A DNA stretch of 64,000 nt from Gammaproteobacteria bacterium (lineage in GTDB: Bacteria; Pseudomonadota; Gammaproteobacteria; SURF-13), in contig QZKM01000006.1 of assembly GCA_003599485.1 (NCBI GenBank), positions 2,922-66,921 of the forward strand, given 5' to 3'. Below are positions 10,642 through 54,024 of the stretch, piece by piece. A program made the position numbers and the translations under genes. How positions within the stretch are numbered: the stretch's first letter is position 1; every line of letters starts with the position of its first letter. The notes beneath the pieces are model-generated. The model was not told where the DNA came from. It searched no databases and worked only from the letters and a program-made list of their open reading frames with translations.

Positions 10642-11214
10642 ATGCAACGACACCAGGGTTATGAATTGCTGGAGCGTATCGGCAGCCTGCTGCGCGCCGA
10701 ACTGCGCAAGAGCGGGGCCGAATACGGCTTGCAGCCAGCGCATCTCCAGGCGCTCGGTTTCTTTGCCCAGGCCAACCGTTACAGCAATACCCCGGCGGCG
10801 CTCACCGAGTATCTGGGCGTGACCAAGGGCACGGCTTCGCAGACCTTGCTGGTGCTGGAAAACCTGGGTTTGGTGAAAAAAACCGAAGACATCTGTGACC
10901 GCCGCGTGGTGCGCGTGGAGCTGACGCGCAGGGGGCGTAGTATTCTCGCCGCGCTGGCGCCACCAGAACTGTGGGGCGCGACATGCGCAAAACTGGGCAA
11001 GCGTGATCTGGATGATCTGGCTGGGAGGCTGGAGCAAGTCTTGCGTGTGATGCAGCAGGTGAACGGGACGCGCACGTTCGGCGTATGCCGCACATGCAGA
11101 CACTTCCTGAGCGAGGGGGCGAGTAAATTCCGCTGCGGCCTGACACGTGAGCCGCTCAAGGCCGAAGAGTCACTCAAGATTTGCCGCGAACACGAAGCGG
11201 CGCCAGCCGCATAA
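10642..11214 (+). CDS. MarR-family transcriptional regulator with Cys-rich C-terminal extension
   Basis: The winged-HTH core (LTEYLGVTKGTASQTLLVLENLGLVKK...DRRVVRVELT) is MarR-like. An extra ~45-aa tail carries four Cys (CRTCRHF...FRCGL...ICREH). Confidence 0.7.
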   Translation: MQRHQGYELLERIGSLLRAELRKSGAEYGLQPAHLQALGFFAQANRYSNTPAALTEYLGVTKGTASQTLLVLENLGLVKKTEDICDRRVVRVELTRRGRSILAALAPPELWGATCAKLGKRDLDDLAGRLEQVLRVMQQVNGTRTFGVCRTCRHFLSEGASKFRCGLTREPLKAEESLKICREHEAAPAA

Positions 11215-20268: not shown

Positions 20269-20417
20269 GCAGGCTGTTGAGAAACAGCCTGCGTGCGGTG
20301 CAAGGTCGCACCGCCATTTTTCAAGCACGCTTTATGTGCTTGAAAAATGAAGCAAAGCAAAAATCACATTTTTTGCTTTGCGGATTGGAAAAGGCCATGG
20401 ATGGCCTTTTTCAATAA
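20269..20417. repeat. ~150-bp multi-hairpin intergenic repeat element, copy A (five consecutive stem-loops)
   Basis: It reads as five consecutive stem-loops. Examples are gcaggctgttgagaaacagcctgc, catttttcaagcac..gtgcttgaaaaatg, aagcaaagcaaaaa..ttttttgctttgc and ggccatggatggcc. The reverse complement reappears at ~85-90% identity at 36292-36440. Confidence 0.55.
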
Positions 20418-36291: not shown

Positions 36292-36440
36292 TTGTTGAAA
36301 AAGCCCTTCCATGGGCTTTTTCAACTCGCAAAGCGAAAAGTGTCATTTTCGCTTTGCTACATTTTTCAAGCACATAAAGCGTGCTTGAAAAATGGCGGTG
36401 CGTCCCTGCACCGCACGCAGGCTGTTTCTCAACAGCCTGC
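36292..36440. repeat. ~150-bp multi-hairpin repeat element, copy B (inverted relative to copy A)
   Basis: Reverse-complement homologue of 20269-20417 at ~85-90% identity, filling the ispA-dxs intergenic region. Its last hairpin overlaps the ispA stop codon. Confidence 0.55.
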
Positions 36441-48210: not shown

Positions 48211-49029
48211 TTATACGGCGCCGTCCGTGTCTTTCTTGAAACTGTATTGCCCGATCTTGCCGCGCAGCGGCAGCAGTAACAGGTCAAGCAAGCCCAGCCG
48301 CGCGCGGTATTCCTTCAAGCCGATTTCAAAGCCCACTTGTCCCAGTGCCGGCTGCGCGCGGTAAGTGCCGCACAGCCGGTCCCACAGCGAAATGGAAAAT
48401 CCGAAGTTGGAGTTGGTTTCGTTGACCACGCTGGAGTGATGCACGCGGTGCATATCCGGCGTGACGATGACGAGGCGCAGCCAGCGGTCTATTTTTTCCG
48501 GGATGTGCACGTTGCCGTGATTGAACACCGAGGCGCCGTTCAGTATCAGCTCGAACGCCAGCACCGCCCAGGGCGGCGCGCCCAGGGCGGCGACGGCGGC
48601 CATTTTGTACAGCATGGAGATGACGATTTCAACCGGATGAAAGCGCACGCCGGTGGTGAGATCGAAGTCCAGATCGCTGTGGTGCACGCGGTGAAGACGC
48701 CAGAACACGGGTAGCGCGTGCGAGATTACATGCTGCAGATACAGTGCAAAATCAAGCAGCAGCCAGGCGAGCAGGAATTCCGTCCACATGGGCCAGGCGG
48801 TGAGATTGAACAGCCCCCAGCCGTGCTGCTGCGCATACAGCGCCGTGGCGTAGGCCCCGGCGCCCAGCAGCAGGCGCACCAGCAGCGCGTCCACGGCGAG
48901 CAGCGAGAGGTTGGTGCGCCAGTGCCGGCTGCGCGGCCCGGTGGGCGCACGGCGCGGACGCTGCGTTTCCCACAGCGCCATCACGATCGACAGGACGATA
49001 AAGCTGCCAAGGCGGATCAGGGTTTCCAT
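48211..49029 (-). CDS. fatty acid hydroxylase/sterol desaturase superfamily membrane protein
   Basis: His boxes HRVHHSD and HRVHHS with multiple TM segments. Confidence 0.75.
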   Translation of the reverse strand: METLIRLGSFIVLSIVMALWETQRPRRAPTGPRSRHWRTNLSLLAVDALLVRLLLGAGAYATALYAQQHGWGLFNLTAWPMWTEFLLAWLLLDFALYLQHVISHALPVFWRLHRVHHSDLDFDLTTGVRFHPVEIVISMLYKMAAVAALGAPPWAVLAFELILNGASVFNHGNVHIPEKIDRWLRLVIVTPDMHRVHHSSVVNETNSNFGFSISLWDRLCGTYRAQPALGQVGFEIGLKEYRARLGLLDLLLLPLRGKIGQYSFKKDTDGAV

Positions 49030-49030
49030 A

Positions 49031-49183
49031 TTATTGACATTTACCTAATTGGTTGACACGTATGTTTCCAGAGATCGTCATTCCCGCGCAAGCGGGAATC
49101 CAGCAGTGTGGCGGCTTTGGCCTTGGGTCCCCGCTTTCGCGGGGACGACGAATTTTGTCATCCATTTAGGTAATCTTCAATAA
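49031..49183. mobile_element. MITE-like element: 18-bp imperfect terminal inverted repeats (TTATTGACATTTACCTAA / TTAGGTAATCTTCAATAA) enclosing two REP-like GC hairpins
   Basis: The terminal repeats match at 16 of 18 positions. The interior carries attcccgcgcaagcgggaat and tccccgctttcgcgggga hairpins. The left repeat abuts the start codon of the desaturase-like gene. Confidence 0.35.
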
Positions 49184-49185
49184 AT

Positions 49186-49255
49186 ACAGTGGCGAGTGGC
49201 TAGTCGCTAGCAACAGAAATGTTCTTGTCACTTGTCACTAGCCACTCGCCACTGT
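49186..49255. repeat. 19-bp perfect inverted repeat (ACAGTGGCGAGTGGCTAGT ... ACTAGCCACTCGCCACTGT) immediately 3' of tRNA-Gly
   Basis: Arms at 49186-49204 and 49237-49255 with a 32-bp spacer. It ends 7 bp from the tRNA 3' end. It shares the AGTGGCGAGTRGCTAGT motif with the thiG 3' end. Confidence 0.45.
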
Positions 49256-49262
49256 TGTAATT

Positions 49263-49336
49263 TGGAGCGGGTGATGGGAATCGAACCCACGTTATCAGCT
49301 TGGGAAGCTGAAGTTCTACCATTGAACTACACCCGC
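49263..49336 (-). tRNA. tRNA-Gly (anticodon CCC)
   Basis: 74-nt cloverleaf folded by hand. Acceptor GCGGGUG/CACCCGC, U8, D-stem GUUC/GAAC, anticodon stem UCAGC/GCUGA with loop UUCCCAA, T-loop UUCGAUU, discriminator U73 and an encoded CCA. Confidence 0.85.
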
Positions 49337-49464
49337 GCGTTTTTAGCTTAGCATAACAGTCAGGATACCGAGAAAGCCTTTGCTTATTATTCATTGGCCT
49401 CCCTCGCACCGATGCCTTAAAATAGCCGCTTGAAGTGCCCCCGAAGGGGTGAGAGTTGTATTTT

Positions 49465-49665
49465 ATGCAAATTTTCGTGAACGGACAGGCGCGCGACGTC
49501 TCCGAAGGCTGTAACGTCACGCAGCTCCTCATGCAACTGGATATGGCCGGCAGGCGCTGCGCCCTGGAGATCAACCGCGAGATCGTGCCGCGCAGCGCCT
49601 ACGCCACTCGCAGGCTGCGCAGCGCCGATCAGGTGGAAATCATCCATGCCGTCGGAGGGGGTTAA
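49465..49665 (+). CDS. thiS: thiamine biosynthesis sulfur-carrier protein ThiS
   Basis: 66 aa starting MQIFVNG and ending in the GG C-terminus. Confidence 0.8.
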
Positions 49666-49666
49666 T

Positions 49667-50485
49667 ATGAGCGCTCTGCCGTCAACCCAGCCTCAGCACG
49701 CCGATCCGCTCATCATCGCGGGCAAACGCTATACGTCACGCCTGCTGGTCGGCACCGGCAAGTACCGCGATCTGGATGAGACGCGCCGTGCCGTCGAGGC
49801 GAGCGGGGCCGAGATCGTCACCGTCGCCATCCGCCGCACCAACATCGGCCAGCATGCGAACGAGCCCAATCTGCTCGACGTGCTGCCGCCGCAGCGTTAC
49901 ACGATACTGCCCAACACCGCGGGCTGTTACACGGCCGAGGACGCGATACGCACCTGCCGCCTCGCGCGCGAGCTGCTGGACGGCCATGATCTGGTGAAGC
50001 TTGAAGTGCTGGGCGATCAGAAGACCTTGTTCCCTGATATTCCCGCGACCCTCAAGGCCGCGGAAATCCTGGTTAAAGAGGGCTTCAAGGTGATGGTGTA
50101 CACCAGCGACGACCCGCTCATCGCCAAGCGCCTGGAGGAGATGGGTTGCGTGGCGGTGATGCCGCTCGCCGCGCCCATCGGGTCGGGCCTTGGCATACGC
50201 AACCCTTACAACATCCGTTTGATCGTGGAAAACGCCAAGGCGCCGATACTGGTGGACGCCGGCGTGGGCACCGCCTCCGACGCCGCCATCGCCATGGAGC
50301 TGGGCTGCGACGGCGTACTCATGAACACCGCCATCGCCGCGGCGAAAAATCCGGTGTTGATGGCCACTGCCATGAACAAGGCGGTGCAGGCCGGGCGCGA
50401 GGCGTATCTGGCCGGGCGCATGCCGCGTAAGCTCTATGCGAACGCATCGTCGCCCATTGACGGAATGTTCTTTAGTGGCGAGTAG
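49667..50485 (+). CDS. thiG: thiazole synthase ThiG
   Basis: [19 protein letters not shown] followed by a TIM barrel with conserved Lys. Start taken at MSALP. Confidence 0.9.
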
Positions 50486-50552
50486 CTAGTGGCGAGTAGC
50501 CAAGAAAAGAATTGATACCTCGCCACTGGCCACCCGCAACTCGCTACTGCCT
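50473..50552. repeat. tandem 14-bp duplication TAGTGGCGAGTAGC x2 spanning the thiG stop codon, followed by inverted partial copies (large dyad)
   Basis: The 14-mers at 50473-50486 and 50487-50500 are identical. Inverted partial copies lie at 50519-50532 (cctcgccactggcc) and 50537-50552 (gcaactcgctactgcc). It shares its motif with 49186-49204. Confidence 0.4.
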
Positions 50553-50554
50553 TT

Positions 50555-51217
50555 ATGCGCCCCATCCGCAGTTACGTGTTGCGCCAGGGGCGCATGACGC
50601 GCGCTCAGCAGCATGCGCTTGATACACTATGGCGGCGCTATGGGGTAGGGTTTCAGGATGCTCCGTTTGATTTCGATGCGCTGTTTGGCCGCCGCGCGCC
50701 GCGTGTGCTGGAAATAGGCTTCGGCGCGGGCGATGCGCTGCTCGCCGAGGCGGGCGCGCATCCGGAAAACGACTATCTCGGCGTCGAGGTGCACCGCCCC
50801 GGCGTGGGGAACTTGCTGCGGCGTCTCGACGCGCAAGGCCTGGTCAACGTGCGCGTCATCTGCCGCGACGCGGTGGAGGTCTTGCAGCGCTCGATCCCCG
50901 ACGCGAGCCTGAGCGCAGTGTACGTATTTTTCCCCGACCCCTGGCCCAAACGCCGCCATCACAAGCGCCGCCTGGTGCAGCCGTCTTTTGCTGATCTCGT
51001 TGCCCGGAAGCTCACGCCGGGCGGGCGGCTCCATCTCGCCACGGATGACGAAGACTACGCGCGACAGGGTATGCACGTGCTAACCCGCTGTTCAAAGTTA
51101 AAAAATATTCATGGTCCGGGAGTGTTTGGCGGCGCCTTGCTGCGCGCGCCCAGCCGCTTCGAGCAGCGCGCCCTGAGGGAGGAGCGGCCGGTATGGGATA
51201 TGGTATTTGAGGGGTAG
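50555..51217 (+). CDS. trmB: tRNA (guanine46-N7)-methyltransferase TrmB
   Basis: SAM-binding motif (LEIGFGAGD) and a DPWPKRRHHKRR block. Confidence 0.9.
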   Translation: MRPIRSYVLRQGRMTRAQQHALDTLWRRYGVGFQDAPFDFDALFGRRAPRVLEIGFGAGDALLAEAGAHPENDYLGVEVHRPGVGNLLRRLDAQGLVNVRVICRDAVEVLQRSIPDASLSAVYVFFPDPWPKRRHHKRRLVQPSFADLVARKLTPGGRLHLATDDEDYARQGMHVLTRCSKLKNIHGPGVFGGALLRAPSRFEQRALREERPVWDMVFEG

Positions 51218-52323: not shown

Positions 52324-52962
52324 ATGATAGGCCAGCAGATCAATCTGTATCTCCCCATCTTCCGCGGCGAGCGGCAACCGTTTTCCGCGCAGACCCTGTT
52401 GTATGCCCTGGCGGGCGTAGCGGTCGTGCTGATGCTTTACTACGGTTATGCCTTGTGGAGTCTGGGGCCGGTGAAGAAAGAGCTGGCGAGCGCGCAGCAG
52501 CGGCACGGCATGGCGCTTAAACGCCTGGAGGAACTGGGTCAGCAGGCGCAGGCCAATCAGAAAGACGCGGCTCTTGAACAGGAGGTAGCGCGGCTCGATG
52601 CCGAGCGCGGCGCGAAACAGCAGGCGCTCGCCAATATTACCGGCGGCGGTTTGGGCAACACCAGGGGATTTTCGGCCCAGATTGAAGGGTTGGCGCGGCA
52701 GCGCGTGGAAGGAGTGTGGCTGACCAATATCGTCATCAGCCAGGGCGGCGCCGACTTTGCGCTGAACGGCGGCGCCCTGGCTCCTGAACTGGTGCCGGTG
52801 CTGTTGCAGGCGCTTGGAAAAGAACCGGTGTTCAAAGGCATGGAGTTCAAGACCCTGTTGCTGGAGCGCTCCGAACAGCAGCCGGCCTGGATTAATTTCA
52901 CCTTGCGCACCGGCAACACGGCGTCCGCCGGGCAAGCTGCGCTCACCGCAGGCGCCGGATGA
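52324..52962 (+). CDS. MshI C-terminal / PilN-like bitopic assembly protein
   Basis: MIGQQINLYLPIF resembles the PilN INLLP motif, followed by a single TM helix and a periplasmic coiled coil. It is a separate ORF in another frame, 7 nt after the upstream stop. Confidence 0.5.
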   Translation: MIGQQINLYLPIFRGERQPFSAQTLLYALAGVAVVLMLYYGYALWSLGPVKKELASAQQRHGMALKRLEELGQQAQANQKDAALEQEVARLDAERGAKQQALANITGGGLGNTRGFSAQIEGLARQRVEGVWLTNIVISQGGADFALNGGALAPELVPVLLQALGKEPVFKGMEFKTLLLERSEQQPAWINFTLRTGNTASAGQAALTAGAG

Positions 52963-53606
52963 AGGAGAAGCTGCGGCAACTGCTGGCGCGCGTAGATGCG
53001 TTCGCGTTGCGCGAGCGCATCCTGCTGTTCGTGACGCTGGGGGTTGTCCTGGTTATTGTCTGGAACGGTGTTCTGCTCGGCCCGGTCAACGTGGAAAAGA
53101 AACGCATCACGGCCGAGCTTTCCGGCTTGAAGCAACAAATCGTCACCGCCGAACAGCAAATACAGGACGCCACCGCCGGAATTGTGGTGGACGTAAACAA
53201 GGAAAACCGCGAACGCGCGGCCACGCTCAGGCAGGAGTTGGCCGATCTCGACCGGCGCATCGGTCAGCTCGCGTTGGGGGGTGAGGAGCTGACCAAGGTG
53301 CTGGCGGAGATGCTGACCAAAGAGCCGGAACTCAAGCTGATTCGGATCAGAAACCTGGAGCGCGTGCCGCTGGAGGTTTCCATCGCGCCGCAGGCGGGTG
53401 GCGCGGGCAGGCTGTACAGGCACGGGCTGGTGATAGAGATGGAGGGCGGCTATTTCAGCGCGCTGCGCTACCTGAAGGCCCTGGAGGGGTTGCCCTGGCA
53501 GTTGTCGTGGAGCAGTTTCAATTACAAGGTGAACGCGTACCCGCTCGCGCATATCACCCTTACCCTCTACACCCTGGGGCTGACGGAGGGCGCGGTGGGT
53601 GTGTGA
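52959..53606 (+). CDS. mshJ: MSHA biogenesis protein MshJ (PilO-like)
   Basis: N-terminal TM helix and coiled coil at the PilO position. Overlaps the upstream gene by 4 nt. Confidence 0.55.
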   Translation: MKEKLRQLLARVDAFALRERILLFVTLGVVLVIVWNGVLLGPVNVEKKRITAELSGLKQQIVTAEQQIQDATAGIVVDVNKENRERAATLRQELADLDRRIGQLALGGEELTKVLAEMLTKEPELKLIRIRNLERVPLEVSIAPQAGGAGRLYRHGLVIEMEGGYFSALRYLKALEGLPWQLSWSSFNYKVNAYPLAHITLTLYTLGLTEGAVGV

Positions 53607-54024
53607 AATACAGAGAAAAGGGGAAAGGGCAAAGGGCAAAGGGAACAGAATTAGGATTTTTCCCTTTGTCCTTTCCCCTTTTCTCTTTGCCCTGTTCTCG
53701 GTTCAAGCCGGATTGCCACAGGTGGAAGGAGAGCTTTCCGATCCCACCAGGCCCCCGGACTATCGGGCGGCCGCCGCCGGGATCGCCGATGCCGTGGCCG
53801 CGCCGCAGTGGGTGCTGAAATCCATACTGATTTCACCCGGCCGGCGCAGCGCTGTTTTGAATGGACGCGCAATCAAAAAGGGCGAACAATTGGACAACCA
53901 GGTGACGGTGCTGGACATCCTGCCCGGCTCGGTATTATTGAAAGGCGCGGAGGGCGAATTTTCTGTGAATTTATTACCCACAACGGTCAAGATGCCGGTC
54001 AATTCCGGGAGCCCGGTCCAATGA
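53599..54024 (+). CDS. mshK: MSHA biogenesis protein MshK (PilP-like lipoprotein/periplasmic)
   Basis: The GTG start overlaps the mshJ end. Lys/Arg-rich n-region then hydrophobic FVLSPFLFALFSVQAG. Overlaps mshL as caATGa. The start assignment is uncertain (ATT/CTG alternatives). Confidence 0.45.
   Translation: MCEIQRKGERAKGKGNRIRIFPFVLSPFLFALFSVQAGLPQVEGELSDPTRPPDYRAAAAGIADAVAAPQWVLKSILISPGRRSAVLNGRAIKKGEQLDNQVTVLDILPGSVLLKGAEGEFSVNLLPTTVKMPVNSGSPVQ

Follow-up and report, generated by a model that had tools for sequence, protein, structure and literature searches.

Gene content and layout of the locus

The locus described here lies in a 64-kb stretch of a gammaproteobacterial contig, QZKM01000006.1 (hereafter the window; 61.75% G+C, with all positions given in window coordinates), and carries genes for tRNA-Gly(CCC), thiS, thiG and trmB together with two hairpin-forming repeats, A and B, that bracket the first three of these genes. 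The tRNA-Gly gene (49263–49336) is on the minus strand and was identified with ARAGORN and by a match to Rfam RF00005 (73.3 bits). On the plus strand are the open reading frames (ORFs) of thiS (49465–49665, encoding 66 aa from an ATG at 49465), thiG (49667–50485, 272 aa) and trmB (50555–51217), the product of the last belonging to the tRNA m7G46 methyltransferase family. Hairpin A (49186–49255) and hairpin B (50473–50549) are unstranded features, with hairpin B occupying the entire gap between thiG and trmB so that the trmB ATG lies 5 nt past its stem. The original prediction, made from this sequence, had read the repeats either as remnants of attachment (att) sites left by an integration next to the tRNA or as copies of a genome-wide palindromic repeat with a second role as a terminator. 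The analysis favors the following account: A and B are probably copies of dispersed heptamer palindromes that follow gene ends and likely serve as leaky terminators or protectors of RNA ends, and are not an att pair.

Structure of the hairpins

The stem of hairpin A is formed by ACAGTGGCGAGTGGCTAGT (49186–49204), which pairs perfectly over 19 bp with 49237–49255 and ends 7 nt from the 3′ end of the tRNA-Gly gene, so that, reading along the minus strand, hairpin A is the first structure met after the tRNA. Its 5′ arm reads ACAG TGGCGAG TGGCTAG TCGCTAG CAACAG and its 3′ arm CTTGTCA CTTGTCA CTAGCCA CTCGCCA CTGT, with an A-rich flank on the 5′ side (AATAAATA) and a T-rich flank on the 3′ side (TTGTAATTT). 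Hairpin B is an imperfect dyad with arms at 50474–50496 and 50519–50541 that are 83% complementary. Its 5′ arm consists of AGTGGCG AGTAGCT AGTGGCG AGTAGCC, followed by the loop AAGAAAAGAATTGATAC and a 3′ arm of CTCGCCA CTGGCCA CCCGCAA CTCGCTA CTG, after which come CCTTT and the ATG of trmB. A 14-bp sequence is repeated perfectly in tandem (2.0 copies) at 50473–50500, and the thiG ORF ends within this repeat at 50485. The perfect inverted repeat beside the tRNA, the tandem duplication carrying the last codons and stop of thiG, and the inverted partial copies that form a dyad after it had all been described beforehand and were all found to be present.

All arms of A and B are made of tandem heptamers (AGTGGCG/AGTGGCT/AGTAGCT). 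The 17-mer that had drawn attention to the locus, with two direct copies 1286 bp apart, corresponds to two and a half of these units (AGTGGCG AGTGGCT AGT...), and the 14-bp duplication to two pairs of heptamers. The motif AGTGGCGAGTRGCTAGT has three exact copies in the window and eight at up to three mismatches, against a shuffle expectation of 0.14, with none of 100 shuffles reaching eight.

Scanning the window from end to end for a 7-nt period detected arrays at A, at B and at one further place, hairpin C (53610–53697, stem 53612–53686, likewise unstranded), about 3 kb downstream, which has the same architecture with a different unit (AAAGGGC type). Its start lies 4 nt past the stop codon of a pilO-like ORF (52959–53606), with a 5′ arm of ACAG AGAAAAG GGGAAAG GGCAAAG GGCAAAG GGAACAG and a 3′ arm of CTTTGTC/CTTTCCC/CTTTTCT/CTTTGCC units closing in CTGT. 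The distances to the preceding gene end are thus 7, −12 and 4 nt for A, B and C. Very stable RNA folds are predicted for hairpin A on the minus strand (−47.7 kcal/mol, z −8.5) and the plus strand (−48.1 kcal/mol, z −7.5), with values of −38.5/−41.4 kcal/mol on the two strands of hairpin B (z −3.7/−4.4) and of −47 to −49 kcal/mol for hairpin C (z −5.3). The tails are TATTTATT for A (on the minus strand), CCTTT for B and TGTTCTC for C. The loops of A, B and C had no significant match in any fetched locus, so neither A nor B is a recent copy of the other as a whole element. The feet of the palindromes are ACAG/CTGT or CAGT/ACTG, GTAG being present only within some units or some flanks. The general design is one of arms of typically three to five heptamers, (AGTGGCK)n on the 5′ side and its complement on the 3′ side, lying in the space that separates a gene end from the start codon that follows.

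Effect on the C-terminus of ThiG

The last three codons of thiG, AGT GGC GAG (SGE), and its TAG stop codon are the first units of hairpin B. About 110 of 120 ThiG relatives end in ...G-x-F-F and none carries the SGE ending, while ThiG of the window ends in ...GMFFSGE. Whether this FSGE ending is native had been a question raised by the original prediction, and since relatives mostly end in FF it is not. The native stop codon after TTC TTT has been lost, and a replacement stop preceded by three extra codons is supplied by the array. Thus the end of the gene has been invaded by the repeat, one copy of which has overwritten the stop codon of thiG. The TAG-bearing units close all three frames within 26 nt of the arm, the last stop ending at nt 26.

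It should also be noted that ThiG of the locus L001, from the closest available relative (P0003, 10801–10816), ends in FFYP, its TAA stop codon reading TAT with a two-residue extension as a result. The C-terminus of ThiG tolerates short extensions in the clade of L001 and the window.

Corresponding sites in related genomes

The closest relatives by ThiG are metagenome-assembled genomes (MAGs) at 94–95% identity, of which 11 loci were compared at three sites, namely site A (from the FA_hydroxylase gene to the 3′ end of tRNA-Gly), site B (the thiG–trmB gap) and site C (after the pilO-like gene). The order tRNA-Gly(CCC)-thiS-thiG-trmB is identical in all 11. In a more distant set of 40 metagenome loci, whose ThiG is 77–86% identical and whose upstream flank is long enough, tRNA-Gly(CCC) was found upstream of thiG in 23, in eight of them within about 600 nt.

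The content of the sites differs widely. In the window, sites A and B hold AGTGGCG-type hairpins, the stretch from tRNA-Gly to thiS holds none, and site C has the AGAGAAA/GGGCAAA type. In L207–L211, site A has a CAAGAGA/AAGAGGC type, and a CAAGAGA type is found between tRNA-Gly and thiS, at site B and, in L210, at site C. L212 has an AAGTAGC/AAGTGGC type at A, a CAAGAGA type between tRNA-Gly and thiS and an AAGTAGC type at B, its locus ending short of site C. In L001–L003, site A, site B and the tRNA-Gly to thiS stretch are all empty, with an AGAGAAA type at site C of L001, the one locus of these three that extends so far. No heptamer hairpin is present at site A of L004 or L005, and site C is not syntenic in either; site B is empty in L004 and holds a palindrome of the repetitive extragenic palindromic (REP) kind, of GTAG type, in L005. 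Only 15 nt separate the start region of the FA_hydroxylase gene from the tRNA end at site A of L001–L003, and the thiG–trmB gap without a hairpin is likewise 15 nt in L001–L003 and 15–27 nt across L001/L004.

Filled alleles follow a regular plan, in which a stop codon or tRNA end is followed by 0–9 nt, the hairpin, CTG(T/C) with four to eight mostly T bases, and then the ATG of the following gene. Filled alleles do not contain the spacer seen in the empty ones (L001, L004), and no target-site duplication or flanking direct repeat was found at A or B. Loops are at times common to two sites of one genome, as in L212, where those at A and B are near-identical (GGGATGTTTTCTTGCTACTT), and in L207, where the hairpins on both sides of the tRNA have a 30-nt loop in common. 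At site C, the window, L001 and L210 have related units in differing numbers and with unequal arms, namely two vs. six units in L210, and other hairpin elements are nested in the loop in L001. Heptamer hairpins have thus been gained, lost or exchanged among close relatives, and unit number varies as in a microsatellite. Because the flavor of the heptamer varies by genome at fixed sites, the resemblance of A to B is accounted for: each genome fills its gene junctions with its current heptamer flavor.

The REP-like palindrome in the thiG–trmB gap of L005 (GTAGCCCGGATGGAAATCCGGG...CATCCAGGCTAC) lies at 10810–10890, where there is no heptamer hairpin; this junction is evidently a recurrent landing place of small palindromes. 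The FA_hydroxylase gene (sterol-desaturase family) bordering site A is intact in the window and in L207–L212. In L001 (9519–9650) an internal deletion has left its two ends, and as both gene ends are kept there the gene is ancestral and not cargo.

Distribution and orientation of the AGTGGCK family

A 23-nt pattern, AGTGGCGAGTRGCTAGTNNCNAG, which covers all three good copies of the window, was scanned on both strands against one genome per species (596 Gb), so that the counts of dispersal refer to the assemblies of relatives and of other species. The pattern was found at at least 118 loci in 93 assemblies from at least 11 phyla, where about 2–3 would be expected from base composition. Among the matches listed, 45 loci were in Acidobacteriota, 27 in Gamma/Beta-proteobacteria and unclassified Pseudomonadota, 14 in Alphaproteobacteria (mostly Brevundimonas), eight in Bacteroidota, seven in Planctomycetota, four in Gemmatimonadota, three each in Verrucomicrobiota and Chloroflexota, two in Desulfobacterota/"Delta", two in unclassified bacteria, and one each in Bacillota, Eremiobacterota and Elusimicrobiota. 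Most carriers are MAGs. Three of the matches listed are nevertheless in strain-titled records (Brevundimonas viscosa, B. denitrificans and Flavisolibacter longurius), which makes an assembly artefact unlikely. An exact-pattern scan of viral contigs gave only three matches and hence no sign of phages as a vehicle. A BLAST search of plasmid and phage collections with an idealised array gave no match, as is expected when the low-complexity filter masks such a query.

The assembly of L001 (JBGFRC01), in which sites A and B are empty, carries the pattern elsewhere, at L032 and L097, one of which abuts the start of a putative guaA (judged from the translated N-terminus) with a ...ACTGCCTTTATG junction as in hairpin B. 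The gammaproteobacterial MAG JAQBXX01 has at least seven pattern loci. In one of these (L020) and in an Elusimicrobia locus (L100) the hairpin lies just after apparent tRNA 3′ ends, as read from the flanks. In 820 kb of hit loci, 25 further arrays of the family lay over 400 nt away from the match that had selected the locus, vs. one in shuffles. The 242 units outside the search pattern have A, G and T at positions 1–3 in 96%, 99% and 93% of cases, with position 4 variable and position 7 alternating between G and T, and the modal length of AGTGGCK arrays is four units.

Many hairpins at the loci selected by the pattern are separated from both flanking ORFs by 10 nt or less, a result that is indicative as the gene calls were improvised. 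The bases flanking the hairpins are rich in A upstream (0.28 vs. 0.19) and in T downstream (0.26 vs. 0.19). When arms no more than 150 nt apart were paired, the AGTNNCN arm preceded its complement in 59 pairs and followed it in two. The purine-rich arm also comes first in the other flavors at A, B and C and in a Xanthomonas-type GGGAATC convergent pair in L173, one of the more distant thiG loci, of which another (L204) has an (AGTGATT)12 array. As the element is palindromic, this polarity is the same on both strands.

Very long pure arrays were also observed, with up to 41 AGTGGCG units in a row (L111, 2133–2419; also L017, L036 and L052), so the unit can expand as a true microsatellite. In Brevundimonas/Caulobacteraceae (L027, L066, L082, L086, L089, L098, L103 and L109), there is a conserved core, about 65 nt long and containing GCGGAAGGGCGGCGCAGG, between two (AGTGGCT)n arms, an arrangement that resembles a miniature inverted-repeat transposable element (MITE) with heptamer arrays as terminal repeats. 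No Rfam match was found for these cores.

Other features of the region

The Pfam label of the FA_hydroxylase-family gene (48211–49029, minus strand) was transferred by orthology with annotated relatives, and ThiS orthologues in L001 and L211 are of 66 aa with Pfam PF02597, while the TrmB orthologue in L001 has Pfam PF02390. By orthology with the annotated loci L001 and L207, the locus is bordered by FA_hydroxylase, His_Phos_1 and porin genes at one end and by trmB and pilM/N-like genes at the other, the pilM/N/O-like cluster that includes the pilO-like ORF lying downstream of trmB.

The tRNA was the sole match in the window at gathering score in Rfam 15, and nothing credible was added at E ≤ 1 over 49000–50600. 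No thiamine pyrophosphate (TPP) riboswitch was detected ahead of thiS (49337–49464), at gathering score or at E ≤ 1; the spacer between tRNA and thiS is 128 nt. Between the start of the FA_hydroxylase gene and hairpin A lies a nested palindrome of 153 bp (49031–49183), with an outer 28-nt inverted repeat (TTATTGACATTTACCTAATTGGTTGACA and its complement) enclosing two REP-like hairpins, ATTCCCGCGCAAGCGGGAAT and GTCCCCGCTTTCGCGGGGAC. It has one copy in the window and is missing from L001 and L207–L212. A sigma-70-like −35/−10 pair within it on the minus strand (49059–49030) is directed into the FA_hydroxylase gene. A second hairpin family, CATTTTTCAAGCAC...GTGCTTGAAAAATG, has two window copies (20312–20352 and 36357–36397), giving four arm matches against 0.48 expected, and a relative of this hairpin lies within the loop of the hairpin-C orthologue of L001 (13953–14017).

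Proposed role and alternative explanations

The identification of A and B as dispersed heptamer palindromes and not att sites is held with high confidence. Their function as leaky terminators or 3′-end protectors is favored by a narrower measure, this part having been rated lower because A, B and C all escape a scan for canonical terminators. Transcripts of either strand are predicted to fold into a stem of 20–30 bp with a short U-rich tail, and such a hairpin would probably act as a leaky bidirectional terminator, as a barrier to 3′–5′ exonucleases, or both. Hairpin A may then end or protect the tRNA-Gly transcript, and hairpin B may protect the thiS-thiG mRNA while attenuating, and not abolishing, read-through into trmB, which is probably co-transcribed with thiG given the 15-nt gap in relatives. 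REP elements and the bacterial interspersed mosaic elements (BIMEs) that stand at 3′ ends or within enterobacterial operons stabilize the upstream mRNA and attenuate transcription. The TAG-bearing units would guarantee a stop codon in every frame. The 7-nt periodicity would let the arms pair in several registers, so that the hairpin would survive the gain or loss of units. Spread would involve slippage for unit number, with whole or partial elements being copied between sites, for which template switching, gene conversion and an enzyme acting in trans are candidates.

Several points weigh against this reading. Hairpin B lies inside a probable thiS-thiG-trmB operon, judged from relatives, where a strong terminator would silence trmB. 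A consensus terminator scan called none of A, B and C, as their loops are longer than 8 nt and no tail reaches five T in 8 nt, and the proposed terminator role is drawn from predicted folds and flanks. Nor does such a role predict the strict polarity of the arms (59/61 with the purine-rich arm 5′), which would fit descent from a single founder, extension of 3′ ends toward the central junction, or G-rich strands ending 3′ at a central break, as in the orientation of Chi. As the spacer has been replaced and there is no target-site duplication, simple transposition is not demonstrated. Finally, the thiG loci of more distant relatives (541 kb) contained no arrays of the family.

The att-site explanation, by which tRNA-Gly-thiS-thiG or tRNA-adjacent DNA would have been integrated by a site-specific recombinase with the motifs as attL/attR scars, draws on the two direct 17-mer copies at their 1286-bp distance, one of them beside the tRNA 3′ end. 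It is extremely improbable. The tRNA-thiS-thiG-trmB synteny is kept in relatives with empty, differently filled or same-placed hairpins, the motif is a heptamer array outside the tRNA that recurs at many unrelated loci and in many phyla, and a third hairpin of like build lies 3 kb further. No integrase gene was called in the syntenic loci of relatives, and the atypical base composition that had been put forward as a check was not found, the G+C content of thiSG (0.64) being normal against 0.6175 for the window. An att pair was also rejected on the ground that the repeat shares no sequence with the tRNA and begins 7 nt outside it, and an integrated element on the grounds that the segment between A and B contains tRNA-Gly, thiS and thiG only, with no integrase or recombinase inside it or beside the tRNA, and is present, not missing, in the 11 close loci. 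The other alternative of the original prediction, a dispersed palindromic repeat, stands in view of the further loci in JBGFRC01 and JAQBXX01, while the terminator activity attached to it is inferred only.

It is also conceivable, if unlikely, that the hairpins are neutral or selfish by-products, i.e. slippage-born heptamer microsatellites made palindromic by strand switching and harmless, with no role in RNA. The variation of unit number and sequence at orthologous sites is as expected of such by-products, as are the unequal arms at site C of L210, the 41-unit array of L111 and the 128 arms that are solo arrays without a partner, and slippage has been hypothesized for other heptamers (PMC4692102). 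However, stable hairpins of unrelated units recur at the same sites, with structure kept and sequence changed, the length distribution has its mode at four units without a broad decay, and placement abuts gene ends with A/T-rich flanks. Slippage alone also leaves unexplained the identical loops at two sites (A and B of L212; A and the 5′ side of the tRNA in L207) and the presence of one unit in at least 11 phyla. The same identical loops, with the presence/absence polymorphism at sites and the genome-specific flavors, would instead suit a non-autonomous mobile element of REP/MITE kind, served by an enzyme encoded elsewhere (e.g. a transposase of the HUH class like those associated with REPs, the RAYTs) and affecting RNA only secondarily. 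Its fixed polarity, as if all copies came from one founder, the MITE-like arrays around the Brevundimonas core and the nesting of other palindromic elements in or beside heptamer hairpins agree with it too. This explanation is nonetheless considered distinctly unlikely, as the original spacer is replaced and not split, with no target-site duplication, there is no conserved GTAG-type 5′ tetranucleotide, and copies within gammaproteobacterial MAGs do not resemble one another in their loops. Between neighboring hairpins in other genomes no transposase was evident; by translation, with no family search run, the genes were housekeeping-like, resembling those of elongation factor P (EF-P), GatB, SecD and a carboxylase, and there were also small ORFs of Pirellulaceae.

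A function at the level of DNA, in which the arms are arrays of recognition motifs such as Chi-like octamers (GCTAGTGG/GCGAGTGG vs. GCTGGTGG of E. coli), is judged very improbable. In the Chi example, RecBCD entering from a break at the center of the dyad would meet the octamers at once and the palindrome would be self-protecting. The orientation in which Chi is read is that of a G-rich strand ending 3′ at the break, and the polarity of 59 vs. 2 places just such a strand at the center of the dyad on both sides. The unit junction GCTAGTGG is one base off GCTGGTGG, which occurs 14 times in the window vs. about 4.4 expected from base composition. Yet the flavors CAAGAGA, AAGTAGC and AAAGGGC are unlike Chi and have the same polarity, the octamer used is that of E. 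coli and may not be the Chi of the host, and codon usage could account for its excess.

A broader possibility is that (AGTGGCK)n arrays are the footprint of an unrecognized process shared across bacteria and not independent microsatellites selected for their hairpins. The near-invariant AGT, the mode of four units, the near-absolute polarity, the spread over at least 11 phyla and the exchange of flavors at gene ends lie behind this thought, which is regarded as quite improbable. The process may be a horizontally moving micro-element with its own enzyme, or a templated addition of 7 nt to the 3′ ends of breaks followed by rejoining, which would produce exactly convergent polarity. Binding of NAG repeats as by HutP/TRAP, CCA-like unit ends, initiation triplets of primase and footprints of 7-bp target-site duplications were also considered and set aside, as none fits the other unit flavors.

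Significance and comparison with known repeat systems

For the locus itself the result is deflationary, with no island and no att sites, and an ordinary thiamine/tRNA neighborhood punctuated by repeats. Heptameric intergenic repeats as such have been known since the short tandemly repeated repetitive (STRR) sequences of cyanobacteria and were re-described in Xanthomonas. What the present clade offers is a natural allelic series at two gene junctions, which are either empty or hold any of three unrelated flavors, and a hairpin copy that rewrote the C-terminus of a protein. Together with the presence of AGTGGCK arrays in cultured strains, judged by record title, this makes function (termination or RNA stability) and origin (mobility vs. 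slippage) directly testable, and the near-absolute polarity of the arms is a constraint on any mechanism. No paper was found in literature searches by the AGTGGCK array sequence, and searches on heptamer repeats returned two pertinent papers (PMC4692102 and PMC4679880). For the breadth across phyla and the turnover of flavors at fixed junctions, no description seems to exist in the searchable literature.

The closest described class is that of the first of these papers, the intergenic heptamers GGGAATC of Xanthomonas and GGGGAYT of Nostoc, which often form convergent inverted pairs, have a mode of four units, lie near the upstream ORF and vary between close species, the pairs in Xanthomonas being "always" convergent (Rehm et al., 2015; PMC4692102). 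The AGTGGCK family resembles them in its tandem 7-nt units with few invariant positions, its mode of four units, its intergenic location near the upstream gene end with 59 convergent vs. two divergent pairs, and the variation of length and sequence at one locus among close relatives. The Nostoc unit is reportedly the complement of CCCCAGT, the unit of cyanobacterial STRR1. The family differs from both in that AGTGGCK has no G-tract and so no potential for quadruplexes, in a spread that covers at least 11 phyla instead of a single genus, in the replacement of unrelated flavors by one another at orthologous sites of close relatives, and in the copy that overlaps and re-creates a stop codon.

Next in closeness, the TAACTGA heptamers of Beggiatoaceae, cyanobacteria and Bacteroidetes are nearly always direct repeats placed immediately ahead of start codons, with one inverted in 170, and have been proposed to be translational regulators (MacGregor, 2015; PMC4679880). 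They share with the AGTGGCK family the form of intergenic heptamer arrays (of two to six units in TAACTGA), stop codons inside the unit, and a patchy occurrence over distant phyla with no evident transfer mechanism. The difference is that the prevailing form in the AGTGGCK family is an inverted pair immediately after a gene end.

Resemblance to REP/BIME elements lies in the short, imperfect, dispersed extragenic palindromes at gene 3′ ends or within operons, in the genome-specific families, and in the occurrence of a GTAG-type REP in the same thiG–trmB gap of L005. REP/BIME elements of enterobacteria and pseudomonads are mobilized by RAYT transposases. The AGTGGCK elements depart from them in their internal 7-nt periodicity with microsatellite-like variation of units, in having no conserved GTAG at the 5′ foot of the palindrome, and in the 5′ position of the purine-rich arm (59 vs. 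2). A stable stem-loop right after a gene or tRNA, with an A-rich 5′ flank, a U-rich 3′ tail and a bidirectional design, recalls intrinsic terminators, from which the hairpins differ by stems of 20–30 bp and loops of 13–35 nt, far larger than the canonical ones, and by short or interrupted U-tracts not called by the consensus scan. They are unlike MITEs in the lack of a target-site duplication and in that the spacer of the empty site is not simply interrupted. All the defining features that were tested for the heptameric class of simple sequence repeats (SSRs), similar to the STRRs, are present in these elements, while REP, MITE and att-site each fail on at least one tested feature.

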